From Shigella phage SHFML-26, in the sequence record KX130862: DNA of 64,000 bases; one strand, 5' to 3'. The position numbers and the translations under genes were made by a program. The notes under the pieces are model-generated. The model was not told the DNA's origin. It worked only from the letters and a program-made list of their open reading frames with translations, and searched no databases. Shown here in pieces: positions 15,683-27,777 of this stretch. How positions within the stretch are numbered: position 1 is the first letter of the stretch; every line of letters starts with the position of its first letter.

Positions 15683-15690
15683 TATAAATA
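15683..15690 (+). promoter_or_regulatory. late promoter core TATAAATA upstream of gene 34
   Basis: ggTATAAATActtatt about 35 nt upstream of the gene 34 ATG, followed by AGGAG RBS. Confidence 0.6.
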
Positions 15691-15724: not shown

Positions 15725-18700
15725 ATGGCCGAGATTAAAAGAAAGTTCAGAGCAGAAGATGGTCTGGACGCAGGTGGCGATAAAATAATCAACGTAGCTT
15801 TAGCTGATCGTACCGTAGGAACTGACGGTGTTAACGTTGATTACTTAATTCAAGAAAACACAGTTCAGCAATATGATCCAACTCGTGGATATTTAAAAGA
15901 TTTTGTAATCATTTATAATAATCGTTTTTGGGCAGCAACGGATAATATTCCAAAACCTGCTGGAAATTTTAATAGAATTCGTTGGAAAGCATTACGTACT
16001 GATGCTGTATATACAACCGTATCATCTGGACCATATCAATTAAAATCCGGAGAAGCAATTTCAGTAGATACATCAGTTGGCAATGACATTGAGTTTACTT
16101 TACCGCCTTCTCCGCTTGATGGAGAAACCGTAATAATTCAAGATATCGGTGGAAAACCTGGCATAAATCAGGTTAAAATAAATTCTTCAAATCAGAGTAT
16201 TGTCAATTTTAGAGGTGAACAGGTACGTTCAGTTTTAATGACTCATCCAAAGTCACAGATGGTATTCATTTTTAATAATCGTTTGTGGCAAATGTATATT
16301 GCTGATTATAGCAGAGAAGCTGCGATTGTTACTCCATCGACTGCATATCAAGCACAATCTAATGATTTTATCGTACGTAGATTTACTTCTGCCGCGCCGA
16401 TTAATGTTAAGCTTCCAAGATTTGCCAATCATGGAGATATCATTAATTTCGTTGATTTAGATAAATTAAATCCACTTTATCATACAATTGTTACGACATA
16501 TGATGAAACAACGTCAGTGCAAGAAGTTGGAACTCATTCCATTGAAGGCCGTACATCGATTGACGGTTTCTTGATGTTTGATGATAATGAGAAATTGTGG
16601 AGATTGTTTGACGGGGATAGTAAAGCACGTTTACGCATTATAACAACTAATTCTAATATTCGTCCAAATGAAGAAGTCATGGTATTTGGCGCGAATAATG
16701 GAACAACCCAGACAATTGAACTTCAGCTTCCGACTGATATTTCTGTTGGTGATACTGTCAAAATTTCCATGAATTACATGAGAAAAGGACAAACAGTTAA
16801 AATCAAAGCTGCAGGTGAAGATAAAATTGCTTCCTCAGTTCAATTGCTGCAATTCCCAAAACGTTCAGAATATCCGCCTGAAGCTGAATGGGTAACAGTT
16901 CAAGAATTAGTTTTTAACGGTGAAACTAATTATGTTCCAGTTTTACAACTTGCTTATATAGAAGATTCTGATGGAAAATGCTGGGTTGTACAGCAAAACG
17001 TTCCAACTGTAGAAAGAGTAGACTCTTTAAATGCTTCTACTAGAGCAAGATTAGGCGTAATTGCTTTAGCTACGCAAGCTCAAGCAAATGCTGATTTAGA
17101 AAATTCTCCACAAAAAGAATTAGCAATTACTCCAGAAACGTTAGCTAATCGTACTGCTACAGAAACTCGCAGAGGTATTGCAAGAATAGCAACTACTGCT
17201 CAAGTGAATCAGAACACCACATTCTCTTTTGCAGATGACCTTATCATCACTCCTAAAAAGCTGAATGAAAGAACTGCTACAGAAACTCGTAGAGGTGTCG
17301 CTGAAATTGCTACGCAGCAGGAAACTAATACAGGTACTGATGATACTACAATCATCACTCCTAAAAAGCTTCAAGCTCGCCAAGGTTCTGAATCATTATC
17401 TGGTATTGTAACTTATGTATCTACTGCAGGAGCTACTCCAGCTTCTAGCCGTGAATTAAATGGTACGAATGTTTATAATAAAAACACTAATAATTTAGTT
17501 GTTTCACCTAAAGCTTTGGATCAGTATAAAGCTACTCCAACGCAACAAGGCGCAGTAATTTTAGCAGTTGAAAGTGAAGTAATTGCTGGACAAAGCCAAG
17601 AAGGATGGGCAAATGCGGTTGTAACGCCAGAAACGTTACATAAAAAGACATCAACTGATGGAAGAATTGGTTTAATTGAAATTGCTACGCAAAGTGAAGT
17701 TAACACAGGAACTGACTATACTCGTGCAGTCACTCCTAAAACTTTAAATGACCGTAGAGCAACTGAAAGTTTAAGTGGTATAGCTGAAATTGCTACGCAA
17801 GTTGAATTCGACGCAGGCGTCGACGATACTCGCATCTCTACACCATTAAAAATTAAAACTAGATTTAATAGTACTGATCGTACTTCTGTTGTTGCTCTAT
17901 CTGGATTAGTTGAATCAGGAACTCTCTGGGACCATTATACCCTTAATATTCTTGAAGCAAATGAGACACAGCGTGGTACACTTCGTGTAGCTACACAAGT
18001 TGAAGCTGCTGCAGGAACATTAGATAATGTTTTAATAACTCCTAAAAAGCTTTTAGGTACTAAATCTACCGAATCGCAAGAAGGTGTTATTAAAGTTGCA
18101 ACTCAGTCTGAAACTGTGACTGGAACGTCAGCAAATACTGCTGTATCTCCAAAAAATTTAAAGTGGATTGTGCAGAGTGAACCAACTTGGGCAGCAACTA
18201 CTCTGATAAGAGGGTTTGTTAAAACTTCATCTGGTTCAATTACATTCGTTGGTAATGATACCGTTGGTTCAACGCAGTCATTAGAATCATATGAGAAAAA
18301 TGGTTATGCAGTATCACCATATGAATTAAACCGTGTATTAGCAAATTATTTGCCATTAAAAGCAAAAGCTGTAGATAGTAATTTATTAGATGGTCTAGAT
18401 TCGCTCCAGTTCATTCGTAGGGACATTGCACAAACAGTTAATGGTTCACTAACCTTAACCCAACAAACGAATCTGAGTGCCCCTCTTGTATCATCTAGTA
18501 CAGCTACGTTTGGTGGGTCAGTTTCAGCAAATAGTACATTAACTATTTCTAATACTGGAACGGCAACTCGATTGATTTTTGAGAAAGGACCTCAAACTGG
18601 AACAAACCCGGCTCAAACGATGACAGTCAGAGTGTGGGGAAATCAATTTAGTGGGGAATCAGACACAACACGTTCTACCGTATTTGAAGTTAGTGATGAA

Positions 18701-19594
18701 ACGTCTAGTCATTTTTATTCTCAGCGTAATAAAGCTGGAAATATAACATTTAATATCAACGGTACAGTAACACCGATAAATGTTAATGCTTCAGGAACAT
18801 TGAATGCAAATGGTGTAGCAACATTTGGTAATTCAGTCACTGCAACTGGTGAAATTATTTCTCGAAGCGCAAATGCTTTCCGTGCTATTAACGGAAATTA
18901 TGGTTTCATTGTTCGCAATGATGGGTCAGTAACGAATTTTATGCTTACTGCATCGGGTGATCAAACCGGCGGATTTAATGGATTGCGTCCTTTAGCTATT
19001 AATAATGCATCTGGCCAAGTAACGATTGGTGAAAGCTTAATCATTGCAAAAGGTGCTACTATAAGTTCAGGCGGTTTAACTGTTAACTCGAGAATTCGTT
19101 CTCAGGGTACTAAAACCTCTGATTTATATACCCGTGCGCCAACATCTGATACAGTAGGATTCTGGTCAATCGATATTAATGATTCAGCCACTTATAACCA
19201 GTTCCCGGGTTATTTTAAAATGGTTGAAAAAACTAATGAAGTGACTGGACTTCCATACTTAGAACGCGGTGAAGAAGTTAAATCTCCTGGTACATTGACT
19301 CAGTTTGGTAACACACTTGATTCGCTTTATCAAGATTGGATTACTTATCCAACGACCCCAGAAGCACGTACCACTCGCTGGACACGTACATGGCAGAAAA
19401 CCAAAAACTCTTGGTCAAGTTTTGTTCAGGTATTTGATGGAGGTAACCCTCCTCAACCTTCGGATATAGGAGCAATCCCATCTGATAATGGAATAATAGG
19501 TAATCTTACTATTCGTGATTTCTTACGAATTGGTAATGTTCGCATTATTCCTGACCCAGTGAATAAAACTGTTAAATTTGAATGGGTTGAATAA
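15725..19594 (+). CDS. 34: long tail fibre proximal subunit gp34
   Basis: 1289 aa MAEIKRKFRAEDGLDAGGDKIINVALADRTVG...; internal repeats of the ...TATETRRG(I/V)A(R/E)IAT... type. Confidence 0.95.
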   Translation: MAEIKRKFRAEDGLDAGGDKIINVALADRTVGTDGVNVDYLIQENTVQQYDPTRGYLKDFVIIYNNRFWAATDNIPKPAGNFNRIRWKALRTDAVYTTVSSGPYQLKSGEAISVDTSVGNDIEFTLPPSPLDGETVIIQDIGGKPGINQVKINSSNQSIVNFRGEQVRSVLMTHPKSQMVFIFNNRLWQMYIADYSREAAIVTPSTAYQAQSNDFIVRRFTSAAPINVKLPRFANHGDIINFVDLDKLNPLYHTIVTTYDETTSVQEVGTHSIEGRTSIDGFLMFDDNEKLWRLFDGDSKARLRIITTNSNIRPNEEVMVFGANNGTTQTIELQLPTDISVGDTVKISMNYMRKGQTVKIKAAGEDKIASSVQLLQFPKRSEYPPEAEWVTVQELVFNGETNYVPVLQLAYIEDSDGKCWVVQQNVPTVERVDSLNASTRARLGVIALATQAQANADLENSPQKELAITPETLANRTATETRRGIARIATTAQVNQNTTFSFADDLIITPKKLNERTATETRRGVAEIATQQETNTGTDDTTIITPKKLQARQGSESLSGIVTYVSTAGATPASSRELNGTNVYNKNTNNLVVSPKALDQYKATPTQQGAVILAVESEVIAGQSQEGWANAVVTPETLHKKTSTDGRIGLIEIATQSEVNTGTDYTRAVTPKTLNDRRATESLSGIAEIATQVEFDAGVDDTRISTPLKIKTRFNSTDRTSVVALSGLVESGTLWDHYTLNILEANETQRGTLRVATQVEAAAGTLDNVLITPKKLLGTKSTESQEGVIKVATQSETVTGTSANTAVSPKNLKWIVQSEPTWAATTLIRGFVKTSSGSITFVGNDTVGSTQSLESYEKNGYAVSPYELNRVLANYLPLKAKAVDSNLLDGLDSLQFIRRDIAQTVNGSLTLTQQTNLSAPLVSSSTATFGGSVSANSTLTISNTGTATRLIFEKGPQTGTNPAQTMTVRVWGNQFSGESDTTRSTVFEVSDETSSHFYSQRNKAGNITFNINGTVTPINVNASGTLNANGVATFGNSVTATGEIISRSANAFRAINGNYGFIVRNDGSVTNFMLTASGDQTGGFNGLRPLAINNASGQVTIGESLIIAKGATISSGGLTVNSRIRSQGTKTSDLYTRAPTSDTVGFWSIDINDSATYNQFPGYFKMVEKTNEVTGLPYLERGEEVKSPGTLTQFGNTLDSLYQDWITYPTTPEARTTRWTRTWQKTKNSWSSFVQVFDGGNPPQPSDIGAIPSDNGIIGNLTIRDFLRIGNVRIIPDPVNKTVKFEWVE

Positions 19595-19602
19595 GAGGTA
19601 TT

Positions 19603-20718
19603 ATGGAAAAATTTATGGCAGAGTTTGGACAAGGATATGTCCAAACGCCATTTTTATCGGAAAGCAATTCAGTAAGATATAAAATAAGCATAGCGGGTTC
19701 TTGCCCGCTTTCTACTGCGGGACCATATGTTAAATTTCAGGATAATCCCGTTGGAAATCAAACATTTAGTGCAGGTCTTCATTTAAGAGTTTTTGACCCT
19801 TCTACGGGAGCATTAGTTGATAGTAAGTCATATGCTTTTTCTGCTTCAAACAATACAACATCTGCCGCTTTTGTCAGTTTCATGAATTCTTTGTCAAACA
19901 ATAAACTTGTTGCTATATTAACTAGCGGAAAGGTTAATTTTCCTCCTGAAGTGGTATCTTGGTTAAGGGAAGCAGGAACTTCAGTTTTTCCATCAGATTC
20001 CGTATTGTCAAGATTTGACGTATCATATGCTGCTTTTTACACTTCTTCTAAAAGAGCTATCGCATTAGAGCATGTTAAACTAAGTAATAGAAAAAGCACA
20101 GATGACTATCAAACTATGTTAGATGTTGTATTTGATAGTTTAGAAGACGTTGGAGCGACAGGATTTCCAAAAAGAACTTATGAAAGCGTTGAGCAATTTA
20201 TGTCAGCGGTTGGTGGAACTAATAATGAAATTGTGCGTTTACCAACTTCAGCTGCTATAAGTAAACTTTCTGACTACAATTTAATTCCTGGTGATGTTCT
20301 TTATCTTAAAGCACAGTTATATGCTGATGCTGATTTACTTGATCTTGGAACTGCAAATATATCTATTCGTTTTTATGATGCATCAAATGGATATATTTCC
20401 TCGACCCAAGCTGAGTTTACTGGGCAAGCTGGGTCTTGGGAATTAAAAGAAGATTATGTAGTTGTTCCTGAAAATGCAGTAGGATTTACGATATATGCAC
20501 AGAGAACTGCACAAGCTGGTCAAGGCGGAATGAGGAATTTAAGCTTTTCTGAAGTATCAAGAAATGGCGGCATTTCAAAACCTGCCGAATTTGGCGTCAA
20601 CGGTATTCGCGTTAATTATGTCTGTGAATCGGCTTCACCTCCAGATATAATGGTACTTCCTACACAGGCATCGTCTAAAACTGGTAAAGTGTTTGGACAG
20701 GAATTTAGAGAAGTTTAA
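19603..20718 (+). CDS. 35: long tail fibre hinge connector gp35
   Basis: 371 aa MEKFMAEFGQGYVQTPFLSESNSVRYKISIAG... Confidence 0.9.
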   Translation: MEKFMAEFGQGYVQTPFLSESNSVRYKISIAGSCPLSTAGPYVKFQDNPVGNQTFSAGLHLRVFDPSTGALVDSKSYAFSASNNTTSAAFVSFMNSLSNNKLVAILTSGKVNFPPEVVSWLREAGTSVFPSDSVLSRFDVSYAAFYTSSKRAIALEHVKLSNRKSTDDYQTMLDVVFDSLEDVGATGFPKRTYESVEQFMSAVGGTNNEIVRLPTSAAISKLSDYNLIPGDVLYLKAQLYADADLLDLGTANISIRFYDASNGYISSTQAEFTGQAGSWELKEDYVVVPENAVGFTIYAQRTAQAGQGGMRNLSFSEVSRNGGISKPAEFGVNGIRVNYVCESASPPDIMVLPTQASSKTGKVFGQEFREV

Positions 20719-20721
20719 ACT

Positions 20722-20750
20722 GAGGGAGCCTTCGGGTTCCTTTTTTCTTT
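20722..20750 (+). terminator. putative rho-independent terminator after gene 35
   Basis: gagGGAGCCttcgGGTTCC stem-loop followed by TTTTTTCTTT. Confidence 0.5.
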
Positions 20751-20757
20751 ATAAATA
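20750..20757 (+). promoter_or_regulatory. late promoter core TATAAATA upstream of gene 36
   Basis: ctttaTAAATAatatt about 25 nt upstream of the gene 36 ATG. Confidence 0.6.
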
Positions 20758-20781: not shown

Positions 20782-21432
20782 ATGGCTGATTTAAAAGTAG
20801 GTTCAACTGTAGGTGGATCTGTCATTTGGCATCAAGGAAATTTTCCGTTGAATTCAGCCGGTGACGATGTACTCTACAAATCATTTAAAATATATTCAGA
20901 ATATAATAAACCACAGGCAGCTGATAATGATTTCGTTTCTAAATCTACTGGTGGTACTTACACAGGCCCAGTTACTATTAATTATGGTGTAAATAGTTAT
21001 CTTCAATTAAGTAATAATGAAACCCCCATCCGAATTCGTTCTGGTGGCGGCACTGGTAATACTCTTGTAGTTGGTGGCTCTTCTGGCGGTATTAGTTTTA
21101 GACCAGCAGGTAGTGAAATCACTACTGGACAAATTACTATTACGCCAGAAGGTTTGACAACATTTACCAAAGCTGTAACGGCTCCATCTGTAACTGTTAC
21201 ATCTACTCCTTCCGCAGCATCTGATGTTACTCGCAAAGATTATGTTGATGGAGCAATAAATACTGTTACAGCAAATGCAAACTCTAGGGTATTACGCTCT
21301 GGAGACACTATGACAGGAAATTTAACTGCGCCAAACCTTTTTTCGCAGAATCCTGCATCTCAACCTTCACACGTTCCACGATTTGACCAAATCGTAATTA
21401 AGGATTCTGTTCAAGATTTCGGCTATTATTAA
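20782..21432 (+). CDS. 36: long tail fibre distal connector gp36
   Basis: 216 aa [29 protein letters not shown]... Confidence 0.9.
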
Positions 21433-21440
21433 GAGGACTT

Positions 21441-24400
21441 ATGGCTACTTTAAAACAAATACAATTTAAAAGAAGCAAAACTGCAGGTCAACTTCCTGCT
21501 GCTTCAGTATTAGCCGAAGGTGAATTGGCTATTAATTTAAAAGATAAAACAATTTTCACAAAAGATGACTCAGGCAATGTTATAGAATTAGGTTTAAAAT
21601 ATGGAGGAACAATTGATGGTTCTTTAACTGTTAATGGAAATATAATTGGAAATTTAACAGGTAACGCTGCAACTGCAACGAAATTAAAAACAGCACGAAA
21701 AATTAATGGTATATCCTTTGATGGGTCAAAGGATATCACGCTAACTCCATCTGACATAAATGTCAATAGCACAACATTTATAAAAAATAATGGCGAATTA
21801 CCTGTTGATGCTAATTTAGATGAGTATGGGCCTGTTGAAGAATATCTTGGAGTTTGGTCGAAAGCAACTTCAACCAACGCTCAACCAGCAAATAAATTTC
21901 CAGAACAAAATGCTGTAGGTGTGCTAGAAGTATTTGTGGCCGGTCAATTTGCTGGTACTCAGAGATATACAACTAGATACGGAAATGTTTATATTCGTTC
22001 CTTGACTGCTACATGGAACGGAGTAAATGGTCCGTGGAGTGTGTGGCGAAATATTCAATCCGGTACTCGTCCACTGTCAACAACGATTGATCTTAATGAT
22101 CTAGGAGGCGCTGAACACTTTGGTTTGTGGCGAAATAGTTCAAATTCCATTGCTACCTTTGACAGAAATTTCCCAGAAGAAGGATCGTCAGCTCAAGGAC
22201 TTTTAGAAGTATATGAAGGTGGAAACTATTCTCGCACACAGAGATATACGACCAGATTTGGTGTTGTTTATACTCGCTGTCTTACTGCTGCGTGGGATGC
22301 TTCTGCGCCTAAATGGGGACCGTGGCAACAAGTCGGTAATGTCACACCAGCGACTTTTTATGATGGAGATCTGAATGATTTTAAAACTCCTGGGTTATAT
22401 AATATTTTAGGCACTGATGCCGTTATTAATTGTCCTACAGGCGAAGGTTTACCAGCCGTTATTGTTGGTTTGCTGGAAGTTAAACAGCGTGCTTCTGGTG
22501 GTGCTATTTTCCAAAAATTTACTACTGCCGGAACAGGTGCAACTACCCGCGATCGTATTTTTGAGCGCGCATACACCGGCGGTGTTTGGGGTACATGGAA
22601 CGAAGTATATACATCTTACTCTCTTCCAATTACTTTGGGTATGGGTGGTATTAAATCTAACTTAGCAGAGTTAGACTGGCAAGCATTTGATTTTGTTCCT
22701 GGTAGTATGTTTAGCGTTCCTTTGAACAAAATAAAGAACATGCCAGCTAATATGGATTGGGGTACGATTGACGGAAACTTAATTATGTTTTCTGTTGGTC
22801 CTAGCGAGCACACCAGCACAGGACGTACTGTTCAGGTTTGGCGTGGAACTGTATCCCAGACAAACTATCGTTATTTTGTCGTTCGTGTATTCGGTAATCC
22901 AGGGAGTAGAACATGTACAGTTCGACGCGTTGTTCTTGAAGACGGATCACATACTTGGACTGCTAAACAAGATTTTAATGGCGCAGTTAACTTTAACTCT
23001 ACTGTTAACCTTAATAACACTACCACATTTAAAACAGAAGTTAAATTCCGCTCGTTGAATGCATTCCGTATGTATGGCGGAAAATTTGGTACATTTTTAC
23101 GTAATGATGGAGAGAGTCTTTATATTCTTTCCACCGACGAAGATGATCAAGATGGAAACTTTAATACAAATAGACCTTTCCGTTATGAATTAAGAACTGG
23201 TGATGTTACTTTGGGTGGTGTTAGTGGTGCTAACGTTTTAAAATTAAAACGTGATTCTCTCACCGCATTTTTTGGTGGTGATATTAACATGAAAGGCACG
23301 ATGACTTTTGACGCCGGACGTTTAGGATCACGAGATTATTTTAAATTTAACCATTGGGGTGATAGCAATAACGCTCGTGATAACATCATCCAGTTAGAAG
23401 ATAGTCAAGGCGCCCATTTTTCCACTGAACGTACTTTAGCGACAGGTGCAATTAAAACTCGTTTCTTTGGCGAAACATTCACTGATGGTACATTATACCT
23501 AAATCAGATGAATAATAGCTCTGAACGATTCTCTATCAACAATTGGGGAAATTCAGAAGTTGGTCGCGCGGCAGTATTGGAAGTCGGCGATTCAAAAGGT
23601 TATCACTTCTATGCTGAACGCAGGACAGATAACAGTTTGATGTTTGATGTTGCTGGTTCTTTGACCGTGCATGGACCTAGCGGAATAACCATCAAAAACT
23701 CAACTGGTGCACGACATATCTGGTTTAGAGATGATAGCGATGCAGAAAAGGCTGTTATCTGGGCTACAGATGAGGGTATTTTACATATTCGCAATAATCA
23801 TGGGGGTTCATTTAGTCATCACTTCCAGGGTGCAATGATTAAAGTGGGAGAGCGTGTTCCTTATGCCGGAGATCAAGGGCTTATTCGCGGTGAAGTTTCT
23901 GGTGGTGCTTATGTGAATTGGAGAGATCGCCCTGCTGGTTTGTTGCTTGACTGTCAACAAAGCGTTGATAGTGCTCATGCTATTTGGAAAGCGGTTGATT
24001 GGGGGCGTAACTTCATCGCTGCTCTGGACGTTCATTGTCCCGGTGATAGTAATAATACTGCGACAGCGATTCTTCATGTTCAGGCTGCTGATTATCAATT
24101 CCATGCAAATGGGAGCTTTGATGCCAGTGGCAACGGAAACTTTAACGATGTTTATATTCGATCAGACCGTCGCCTTAAAGACAATATAGAAGATTATACC
24201 GGAAATGCGTTAAGTTTGATTGGTAAACTGAAAGTGAAAACTTACGATAAAGTTAAATCTCTTAAGGACCGTGAAATTATCGGTCATGAGATCGGCATTA
24301 TCGCACAGGATTTACAAGAAATATTACCAGAAGCGATTAATATTTCGAAAATTGGCAATCTTGATAAACCAGACGAAGTTCTGACAATTTCTAACTCCGC

Positions 24401-24515
24401 TGTGAATGCTCTTTTAATTAAGGCCATTCAGGAAATGAGTGAAGAAATTAAAGAATTGAAAACGCCTTTCTTCACTAAAATTGCTCGCAAAATTAGTAAA
24501 TATTTTAAATTCTAA
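21441..24515 (+). CDS. 37: long tail fibre distal subunit gp37 with C-terminal intramolecular-chaperone-like domain
   Basis: 1024 aa; N-terminus [13 protein letters not shown]...[11 protein letters not shown] conserved; C-terminus ...[34 protein letters not shown]... resembles self-cleaving chaperone domains of other phage fibres. Confidence 0.9.
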
Positions 24516-24551
24516 CAACAAGGGGGAAATGCCCCCTTTGGAGTATAAATT

Positions 24552-25334
24552 ATGGCAGTAGTTGGAGTTCCTGGCTGGATTGGAAGTTCAGCCGCAAATG
24601 AAACAGGACAACGCTGGATGAGTCAAGCGGCTGGTCAATTAAGATTGGGTGTTCCTTGCTGGATGAGTCAATTTGCAGGTCGCTCACGAGAAATTATTCA
24701 CACGCTTGGAGCAGACCATAACTTCAATGGTCAATGGTTCCGAGATAGATGTTTTGAGGCAGGTAGTGCACCTATAGTGTTTAATATCACTGGAGATTTA
24801 GTATCATATTCTAAAGATGTTCCTTTATTCTTCATGTACGGAGATACACCAAATGAATATGTTCAGTTAAATATACATGGCGTAACGATGTATGGACGTG
24901 GCGGTAATGGTGGTAGCAATAGTCCTGGCTCAGCTGGAGGTCATTGTATTCAAAACGATATTGGTGGGAGACTAAGAATTAATAATGGTGGAGCTATTGC
25001 TGGCGGCGGTGGCGGCGGTGGCGGCGGATATTATTCTCCTTTTTCACGAATGAGATTAACCTTTGGCGGTGGTGGTGGGCGTCCGTTTGGTGCACCTGGC
25101 GGATCTATTGATATGCAATCAGGCGCAACTGCTGGTACTATTTCTGCACCTGGCTCAGGATCCGTGAATGGTATCTATAATGGTGGAAACGGTGGTGAAG
25201 TAGGTTCCGCGGGAGGTAGATGCAATATTCGCGGTCAAGGATCTGAATATAATGGCGGCGCTGCTGGTTATGCTGTCATAGGGTCTGCTCCAACGTGGCA
25301 AAATGTTGGAGCAATATATGGTCCAAGAGTATAA
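24552..25334 (+). CDS. 38: gp38 receptor-recognising adhesin (T2-type, glycine-rich motifs)
   Basis: 260 aa [33 protein letters not shown]... with [11 protein letters not shown] and [14 protein letters not shown] glycine-rich motifs; unlike the short T4 gp38 chaperone. Confidence 0.85.
25002..25028 (+). repeat. (GGC GGC GGT)x3 simple repeat encoding the poly-Gly tract of gp38
   Basis: Direct trinucleotide repeat within gp38 coding sequence. Confidence 0.6.
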
Positions 25335-25364: not shown

Positions 25365-26021
25365 ATGGCAGCACCTAGAATATCATTTTCGCCCTCTGAT
25401 ATTCTATTTGGTGTTCTAGATCGCTTGTTCAAAGATAATGCTACCGGGAAAGTTCTTGCTTCCCGGGTAGCTGTCGTAATTCTTTTGTTTATAATGGCGA
25501 TTGTATGGTATAGGGGAGATAGTTTCTTTGAGTACTATAAGCAATCAAAGTATGAAACATACAGTGAAATTATTGAAAAGGAAAGAAATGCACGCTTTGA
25601 ATCTGTCGCCCTGGAACAACTCCAGATAGTTCATATATCATCTGAGGCAGACTTTAGTGCGGTGTATTCTTTCCGCCCTAAAAACTTAAACTATTTTGTT
25701 GATATTATAGCATATGAAGGAAGATTACCTTCAACAATAACTGAAAAATCACTTGGAGGATATCCTGTTGATAAAACTATGGATGAATATACAGTTCATT
25801 TAAATGGACGTCATTATTATTCCAATTCAAAATTTGCTTTTTTACCAACTAAAAAGCCTACTCCCGAAATAAACTACATGTACAGTTGTCCATATTTTAA
25901 TTTGGATAATATCTATGCTGGAACGATAACCATGTACTGGTATAGAAATGATCATATAAGTAATGACCGCCTTGAATCAATATGTGCTCAGGCGGCCAGA
26001 ATATTAGGAAGGGCTAAATAA
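25365..26021 (+). CDS. t: holin
   Basis: 218 aa MAAPRISFSPSDILFGVLDRLFKDNATGKVLASRVAVVILLFIMAIVWYRGD...; single N-terminal TM segment. Confidence 0.95.
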   Translation: MAAPRISFSPSDILFGVLDRLFKDNATGKVLASRVAVVILLFIMAIVWYRGDSFFEYYKQSKYETYSEIIEKERNARFESVALEQLQIVHISSEADFSAVYSFRPKNLNYFVDIIAYEGRLPSTITEKSLGGYPVDKTMDEYTVHLNGRHYYSNSKFAFLPTKKPTPEINYMYSCPYFNLDNIYAGTITMYWYRNDHISNDRLESICAQAARILGRAK

Positions 26022-27036: not shown

Positions 27037-27316
27037 ATTGAATCACCTTCAGTTGACGTTTTAGCTCTTTTATCATCTCTTCGTTCATCGCAATATAAAG
27101 ATCGCGTAAAGCAGGTTTTAGCATTCCATTTACTGGAGAACTAAATGGGCACACATAATCTTTTCCTACAAGCTTTTTAGTTAATTCCATATCACAAAAC
27201 TGAAATGCAGGTTCATTAGCATAAATTCCCCAATTAGTTGACATCATTTTATTGGCATATTCCAATGCTTGGATTTGATTAGTAATTCCATCAATTTGAA
27301 ACTTTTTAATATTCAT
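27020..27316 (-). CDS. hypothetical protein (98 aa)
   Basis: Track ORF, co-oriented. Confidence 0.45.
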   Translation of the reverse strand: MNIKKFQIDGITNQIQALEYANKMMSTNWGIYANEPAFQFCDMELTKKLVGKDYVCPFSSPVNGMLKPALRDLYIAMNEEMIKELKRQLKVIQFGQGN

Positions 27317-27777
27317 TAGTAAAGGTCCTCGGAGTAAAGTTCTTTTTCACTACCACCACGTTCAATACGCACTTGTCCAGCGTAAGTTGCAATAATCATT
27401 GCTTCTTCACGTGTCCAATAATTACTATATTGGTCAATAAACCCTTGGTCATCATCACAAACTTGTTGAGTAACTAATTGAGGTTTAACTACATCTAAAA
27501 CTTCGGCCATATCTTTAGAATAATGACGAGCACCTGGAATAACAAGAGTTCGTCCATCTTTTAATTTAAAACGGTTGGCTGCGCAAACAATTCGTCGTTG
27601 ATACTTTTGGTTTTCATCCCAGTATGCGGTTTGCCAACAGATTTCAGGAACTTCTGCAAGAATATCTTCTTCTGTGCATTTATAACCATGTGCTTTAAAT
27701 TTTTGAACAAGACTCTCCGGAGTCTCACGAGATAAAGGAACATTCAGCATTTTTAAACGATTGATAAATGGGTTCAT
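27316..27777 (-). CDS. hypothetical protein (153 aa)
   Basis: Track ORF, co-oriented; stop/start overlaps with neighbours. Confidence 0.5.

Follow-up and report, generated by a model that had tools for sequence, protein, structure and literature searches.

In phages T2 and T6, the C terminus of the distal long-tail-fiber protein gp37 is cleaved and gp38 then caps the fiber (Trojet 2011), and gp38 adhesins are described by a scheme of five glycine-rich motifs (GRM) and four hypervariable segments (HVS) (Trojet 2011; Lutz 2025). In T4, by contrast, gp37 has its own receptor-binding tip, with Collar and Phage_fiber domains and no S74 domain, and gp38 is an unrelated chaperone. Salmonella phage S16, a member of another genus, has OmpC as its receptor; the intramolecular chaperone and cleavage motif of its gp37 are homologous to those described below, and its gp37-gp38 complex (PDB 6F45) served as structural template for the mechanism that we propose. 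We analyzed the long-tail-fiber locus of Shigella phage SHFML-26, in particular genes 37 and 38, within a 64,000-nucleotide (nt) stretch of its genome (record KX130862; this whole stretch is called the window, and positions are counted from its first letter). With T6 and its relatives RB3/RB5, WilhelmHis, Paracelsus, and KarlGJung, the locus has in common the gene order and a gp37 that ends in an S74 domain. We conclude that it very probably encodes a T6-type fiber tip, in which a self-cleaving gp37 chaperone would give way to a gp38 cap with Tsx as its receptor, the whole being a recombinational patchwork.

The features of gp37 that bear on the tip are as follows (aa, amino acids):

21441..24515, + strand: gene 37, distal half-fiber precursor, 1,024 aa (phrog_1699 matched at full length, E 1e-232; identical to YP_009278975.1)
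24147..24161, + strand: gp37 aa 903-907, DVYIR, predicted to be the final strand of mature gp37 and to serve as platform for gp38 docking (aligns with S16 DLNVS^SDRRIKK)
24162..24512, + strand: gp37 aa 908-1024, S74 intramolecular chaperone, in which Ser908 and Lys913 are the putative catalytic residues (PF13884; PDB matches 6F45_A, 8JOV, and 7DC3)

The Peptidase_S74 profile (PF13884) matched gp37 at aa 908-965 over 56 of its 58 model positions (E 1.7e-14), with a score of 54.2 bits against a Pfam gathering cut-off of 22 bits. The chaperone makes up the final 117 of the 1,024 residues, at the extreme C terminus of the distal fiber subunit, and begins S908-D-R-R-L-K913, such that a Ser/Lys dyad is spaced at i/i+5 and the S-D-x-R-x-K family motif is intact. 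In the S74 family, the Ser/Lys dyad is catalytic. Among PDB sequences, the C-terminal 138 residues matched the tip and chaperone of S16 gp37 (6F45_A, E 1.2e-06), a phage fiber (8JOV), and a eukaryotic MYRF domain (7DC3), in keeping with the claim of a first-pass annotation, made from the DNA alone, that gp37 ends in a domain typical of self-cleaving fiber chaperones. The junction DVYIR/SDRRLKDNI aligns with DLNVS/SDRRIKKDI of S16, and the MYRF counterpart reads ADLRAK. T2 gp37 is a 1,341-aa protein only 30% identical to that of SHFML-26, and its C-terminal 200 aa align at 32%, including NVYIRSDIRLK. The cleavage site of S16 is DLNVS^SDRRIKK, and a DVYIR^SD junction was predicted for the closely related fPS phages (PMC7917993). 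Based on the S16 alignment and that predicted junction, we predict cleavage after R907, which would yield a 907-residue mature gp37 and a 117-residue chaperone that is freed following trimer folding.

If the S74-like domain were instead a degenerate, uncleaved remnant, gp37 would remain full length, and such a reading draws on the fact that gp37 processing in SHFML-26 is predicted from homologues. Against it, the Ser/Lys dyad and flanking motif are intact, and the last ~40 chaperone codons differ at just 3 to 5 of every 100 nt from those of KarlGJung and T6. The full S74 domain is also retained in gp37 of T2, T6, and KarlGJung, as found by Pfam domain content (T4 gp37 was without S74 and had Collar and Phage_fiber), and C-terminal cleavage is documented in T2, T6, and S16. 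We consider an uncleaved remnant highly improbable and retain a self-cleaving chaperone as the predicted state of the gp37 C terminus.

The gene downstream encodes the candidate cap:

24552..25334, + strand: gene 38, fiber-tip adhesin, 260 aa (Pfam GP38 and Gp38_N; PDB 9V85 and 6F45_D; identical to YP_009278976.1)
24552..24677, + strand: gp38 aa 1-42, attachment domain with W9, W22, and W37 (Gp38_N; the tryptophans align with those of S16 gp38)
24894..25277, + strand: gp38 aa 115-242, receptor-binding region with five GRM and four HVS (alignment of homologues)
Glycine-rich motifs, in gp38 aa: GRM1 115-121, GRM2 151-159, GRM3 172-184, GRM4 211-222, GRM5 235-242
Hypervariable segments, in gp38 aa: HVS1 122-131, HVS2 160-171, HVS3 185-210, HVS4 223-234

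Two Pfam profiles matched gp38 over their entire lengths: GP38 (PF05268) at aa 47-260 (E 3.8e-72, 218 of 218 model positions) and Gp38_N (PF21721) at aa 1-42 (E 6.1e-20, 40 of 40). Among PDB sequences, gp38 matched the receptor-binding domain of PP01 gp38 (9V85, E 5.5e-79) and S16 gp38 (6F45_D, E 1.3e-49, residues 5-257 aligned), and because these are solved structures matched at E 1e-49 to 5.5e-79, the fold of gp38 is settled. The N-terminal tryptophans of gp38 adhesins have a docking role (PMC7917993). In an alignment of ten gp38 homologues, sequence variation was concentrated in the four HVS. All glycine-rich motifs are conserved in S16 gp38, which has other hypervariable loops and a far shorter HVS2.

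Genes 37, 38, and t follow one another as in T4; gene 38 begins after a 36-nt spacer from the stop codon of the S74-terminated gene 37, and the holin gene is next downstream. The T4-like order would suit a T4-style fiber in which the gp37 tip binds the receptor and gp38 is an assembly chaperone absent from the virion. BLASTP against T4 gp38, however, gave a best E of 1.7 over 12 residues, and a T4-type assembly chaperone was rejected as the identity of gp38, which is instead a full-length member of an adhesin family with solved structures. Moreover, where the T4 tip has Collar and Phage_fiber domains, gp37 of SHFML-26 has S74. A T4-style fiber is, on sequence grounds, effectively refuted, and we give it almost no weight. 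Because gp38 is homologous to the solved adhesins of S16 and PP01 and the T4 gp37 tip domains are replaced by S74, gp38 rather than the gp37 tip is probably the receptor-binding determinant, as the first-pass annotation had proposed. The peptides it quoted were all found in the translations, and the open reading frames (ORFs) of gp37 and gp38 are at the positions it gave. It had also called gp38 a 260-aa T2-type adhesin; the assignment to the glycine-rich adhesin family stands, but the subtype is that of T6 (93% identity) and not that of T2 (~51-55%).

Domain content, motifs, identities, and mosaic breakpoints were observed directly in the sequence; these elements can be combined in a mechanism for which we infer cleavage, docking, and Tsx binding from homologues. 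The gp37 protein would be synthesized as a 1,024-aa precursor, of which the C-terminal 117 residues would act as an S74-type intramolecular chaperone that nucleates trimerization and folding of the shaft. The chaperone would then cleave itself off between R907 and S908 through the Ser908/Lys913 dyad, baring a flat trimeric tip that ends in DVYIR. A single gp38 would dock there by means of its N-terminal domain, which carries the tryptophans W9, W22, and W37, and its five glycine-rich motifs would form a polyglycine scaffold that presents the four hypervariable loops to the cell surface.

The receptor was predicted by comparison of gp38 with related adhesins:

Full-length gp38 identity, closest adhesins: KarlGJung 99.6%, WilhelmHis 97.3%, RB3 96.9%, SF2-1 96.9%, PST 96.2%, T6 93%
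Full-length gp38 identity, distant types: vB_ECOLIGBLB0003 72-76%, T2 51-55%
25047..25049, + strand: codon CGA, R166 of gp38 in HVS2, the sole difference from the KarlGJung/fPS-65 adhesin

Over aa 114-260, gp38 was 99.3% identical to that of KarlGJung, whose adhesin protein is also recorded for fPS-65, 98.6% to WilhelmHis, 95.9% to RB3, and 95.2% to T6; identity over the same region was 56.7% to the vB_ECOLIGBLB0003 adhesin and 51.6% to T2. When the variable segments were compared with adhesins of known specificity, the HVS set proved to be the common four-segment set of experimentally Tsx-dependent phages. T6-like adhesins (T6, RB3, RB5, RB14, and others) use Tsx, and adhesins that bind Tsx have, in nearly every case, the same set of four hypervariable segments (Trojet 2011). 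Likewise, WilhelmHis, Paracelsus, and KarlGJung have Tsx as primary receptor and the deep core of lipopolysaccharide (LPS) as terminal receptor (BASEL supplement), and gp38 phylogeny predicts the receptor (Lutz 2025). Because the gp38 loop set is of the T6/RB3/KarlGJung type, the nucleoside channel Tsx is most likely the primary receptor on E. coli and Shigella. A T2/FadL-type specificity was rejected, as T2, which is of the FadL/OmpF type, has the same architecture and a gp38 of the same Pfam family but other hypervariable segments.

The residue at position 166 bears on this assignment. The position is Q throughout the T6 group and in T6, RB3, WilhelmHis, SF2-1, and KarlGJung of the adhesins compared, and it is R, as in SHFML-26, only in Yersinia phage PST (Q167R in T6 numbering). 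PST gp38 also has I168, I208, and a proline at position 165, where SHFML-26 has serine. The PST changes Q167R+M168I in HVS2 and G208I in HVS3 broaden recognition and have been linked to a dual E. coli/Yersinia range and an OmpA requirement (Trojet 2011). SHFML-26 gp38 has only the first of the three, with M and G at the 168 and 208 sites.

Several points weigh against the Tsx assignment. Yersinia mutants resistant to fPS-65 mapped to hldD/hldE, which act in LPS heptose synthesis, and the receptor was heat-stable (PMC7917993); Y. pseudotuberculosis is, moreover, without a Tsx homologue (Trojet 2011). The fPS-65 data and the lack of a homologue together indicate that this adhesin type can work via a non-Tsx receptor on some hosts. 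R166 is the PST residue, and PST requires both Tsx and OmpA, a broadened receptor requirement (Trojet 2011). Tsx assignments derive from E. coli K-12 mutants, not Shigella, and receptor use in SHFML-26, like cleavage and capping, is predicted by homology. One could thus suppose that the architecture is the same but that the effective receptor is not, or not only, Tsx and that OmpA and/or the LPS inner core is engaged via R166. The adhesin of fPS-65, which differs at residue 166 alone, is tied to the LPS inner-core heptose region in Yersinia, PST combines R at 166 with I168 and I208 and needs OmpA besides Tsx, and the Q167R+M168I pair by itself raised T6 plating on Yersinia. Nevertheless, all five of the close relatives tested on E. 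coli K-12 were Tsx dependent, a T6 chimera with HVS2 and HVS3 of PST still mainly recognized Tsx, and SHFML-26 gp38 carries one of three PST changes. Heptose-less LPS mutants also alter outer-membrane protein content, as related by Trojet 2011 in citing Ried 1990, and affect short-tail-fiber binding too, so the finding with fPS-65 may have a cause other than gp38. We consider a receptor other than or beyond Tsx unlikely, and doubt that the Q-to-R change at 166 is a natural one-residue host-range switch that widens or moves recognition beyond Tsx, for instance, toward binding that depends on OmpA or LPS on Shigella or Yersinia. At this locus, only the PST-like arginine of HVS2 is slightly out of the ordinary. 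In practical terms, Tsx as predicted receptor indicates the resistance mutations to be expected (tsx loss) and which phages would be redundant with SHFML-26 in a cocktail.

The mosaic structure of the module was mapped with sliding-window nucleotide identities and mismatch maps against relatives. Genes 34 to 36 were 98-100% like those of T6, KarlGJung, and vB_ECOLIGBLB0003, and gene 37 was ~100% SF2-1-like at 21450-22300. An exact run of 1,203 nt shared with vB_ECOLIGBLB0003 (23292-24494) ended ~20 nt short of the gene 37 stop codon, and identity to T6 and KarlGJung in the shaft at 23400-24300 was 30-57%. Within ~24400-24500, which holds the last ~40 chaperone codons and is similar in all compared phages, the best match became KarlGJung. 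Gene 38 was 99-100% KarlGJung-like, with vB_ECOLIGBLB0003 down to 59-78%, and all compared phages converged once more in gene t. Gene 38 of vB_ECOLIGBLB0003 was ~91.5% identical at the DNA level to that of RB32, which uses OmpA/LPS (Trojet 2011). The shift of best relative from SF2-1 to vB_ECOLIGBLB0003 to KarlGJung agrees with the mosaic module that the first-pass annotation had described. From the identity breakpoints, gene 38 is therefore swapped as a cassette via conserved flanks, and the cassette is bounded on the left by the conserved 3' end of gene 37 and on the right by that of gene 38 together with gene t. In the T6 group as a whole, gp34 to gp36 of T6 are 98-100% identical to those of SHFML-26 and gp38 is 93-99.6% identical with the same four-HVS set, but gp37 differs, with an overall identity of only 74-77%. 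We conclude that recombination has pieced the module together from segments circulating among Tequatrovirus phages and that mosaicism is the normal state of the locus, textbook T-even fiber modularity.

A metagenome contig provided a case of exchange within gene 38 itself. In L007 9112-9891 (ENA metagenome scaffold ERZ28651243), gene 37 was identical to that of SHFML-26 at the DNA level and gp38 was identical over aa 1-159. Dense divergence set in precisely where the G9 run of GRM2 ends, and HVS2 to HVS4 differed. Crossover between glycine-rich motifs has been described for T-even adhesins (Trojet 2011). We conclude that this contig is a natural case of loop-set exchange in an otherwise identical fiber, with the crossover at the G9 run.

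Upstream of the tip, gp37 comprises a conserved N terminus and a divergent shaft:

21441..21638, + strand: gp37 aa 1-66, conserved N terminus common to T4 and T2 gp37 (identity to T4 79%, E 4e-28; to T2 76%)
21798..22334, + strand: gp37 aa 120-298, two tandem ~90-aa shaft repeat domains (copies 38% identical, E 1e-19, segment-versus-segment BLAST)
22995..23183, + strand: gp37 aa 519-581, Gp34_trimer-like shaft domain (Pfam PF21446, E 1.9e-15; PDB 4UXE and 5NXF, both gp34, E 1e-13)

The N-terminal 66 aa may form the junction with gp36. Immediately downstream of their codons, nucleotide identity to T4 dropped from 90% to 32%, and beyond aa 66 local matches to T4 gp37 were few and weak (22-46% identity, E 5e-05 or weaker), as expected from the earlier claim that gp37 diverges past its conserved N terminus. 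The tandem repeats at aa 120-298 overlap phrog_4618, "tail collar fiber protein." Over the shaft repeats (aa 100-400), there was no Pfam match, and the sole PDB match, 4AOE, was not significant (E 0.84). A possible third, degenerate repeat copy was noted at aa ~300-395.

The fiber genes lie within six successive ORFs, genes 34, 35, 36, 37, 38, and t, on the + strand at 15.7-26.0 kb. Those not yet described are as follows:

15725..19594, + strand: gene 34, proximal half-fiber, 1,289 aa (Pfam Gp34_trimer and Gp34_2nd; identity to T6 99.2%, to T4 91.2%)
19603..20718, + strand: gene 35, hinge connector, 371 aa (identity to T6 97.6%, to T4 95.1%; annotated as hinge connector in syntenic records)
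20782..21432, + strand: gene 36, distal connector, 216 aa (Pfam Phage_T4_gp36; identity to T6 and vB_ECOLIGBLB0003 100%, to T4 70%)
25365..26021, + strand: gene t, holin, 218 aa, conserved right flank of the exchangeable cassette (Pfam Phage_holin_T, E 4e-117)

With identities to T4 of 91%, 95%, and 70%, gp34, gp35, and gp36 are T4-like, as first annotated, so that homology between the T4 and SHFML-26 fibers extends over gp34 to gp36 and the first 66 aa of gp37. Gene t was 97-100% identical at the nucleotide level to that of every relative compared. The flanking 21 kb was 97-99% identical to many Tequatrovirus genomes, which places the window in the genome of a T-even phage. Among phage genomes other than SHFML-26, the top DNA match to the region of genes 37 and 38 was SF2-1 (94.9%). 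Exact-sequence look-up found gp37 and gp38, residue for residue, as ANN86874.1/YP_009278975.1 and ANN86875.1/YP_009278976.1 of SHFML-26 (RefSeq NC_031011, 168,993 bp). RefSeq annotates them as "long tail fiber protein distal subunit" and "tail fiber protein; host specificity," and PHROGs gave the same descriptions (phrog_1699 for gp37; phrog_2056 for gp38, E 1e-112). The E-values of these matches and of the Pfam domain matches lie well outside what chance would give. The locus is the distal end of an ordinary, previously annotated T6-type long tail fiber; its observed features are already known, all being documented for T2/T6-type phages, and its exact proteins are public. The chaperone plus gp38 cap, the GRM/HVS design, and cassette exchange are established for T2, T6, S16, and PP01, and the locus has little bearing on basic biology.

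The literature search found SHFML-26 mentioned in papers but in no title or abstract of those found; it is cited there as one of the phages in the ShigActive/ShigaShield preparations. In the sequence databases, the 90% gp38 cluster is represented by PJZ22119.1, labeled "receptor-recognizing protein [Bacillus cereus]," and further members are labeled Shigella flexneri. Both labels almost certainly reflect phage contamination of bacterial assemblies.

Candidate regulatory and RNA features accompany the fiber genes:

24520..24538, + strand: hairpin between genes 37 and 38, AAGGGGG-AAATG-CCCCCTT, in the 36-nt spacer (free energy [dG] -16.9 kcal/mol, z -2.06)
24540-24543, + strand: GGAG ribosome-binding site, 3' of the hairpin
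15683..15690, + strand: TATAAATA, T4 late-promoter consensus match (exact, 35 nt upstream of gene 34)
20750..20757, + strand: TATAAATA, late-promoter-like site (exact, 25 nt upstream of gene 36)

The hairpin is kept at the equivalent place in T6, T2, T4, SF2-1, and vB_ECOLIGBLB0003, with differing stem and loop sequences and a UUCG loop in T2 and T4. This suggests a conserved RNA structure that may serve as a transcript-stabilizing element or weak terminator. Gene 38 is preceded only by a one-mismatch version, TATAAATT (24544-24551), of TATAAATA, which we take to be the T4 late-promoter consensus. Because TATAAATA was not enriched in the window (8 found, 9.6 expected by chance), it is only by position that the sites preceding genes 34 and 36 suggest a function. 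Scanning the entire window for Rfam families and tRNAs gave no matches. Downstream of the fiber module, in the arn region at 27150-27450, alignment identity to T4 fell to 0-47% and that to T6, T2, KarlGJung, and SF2-1 was ~94%. Compared with T4, this segment carries an indel or has been replaced.

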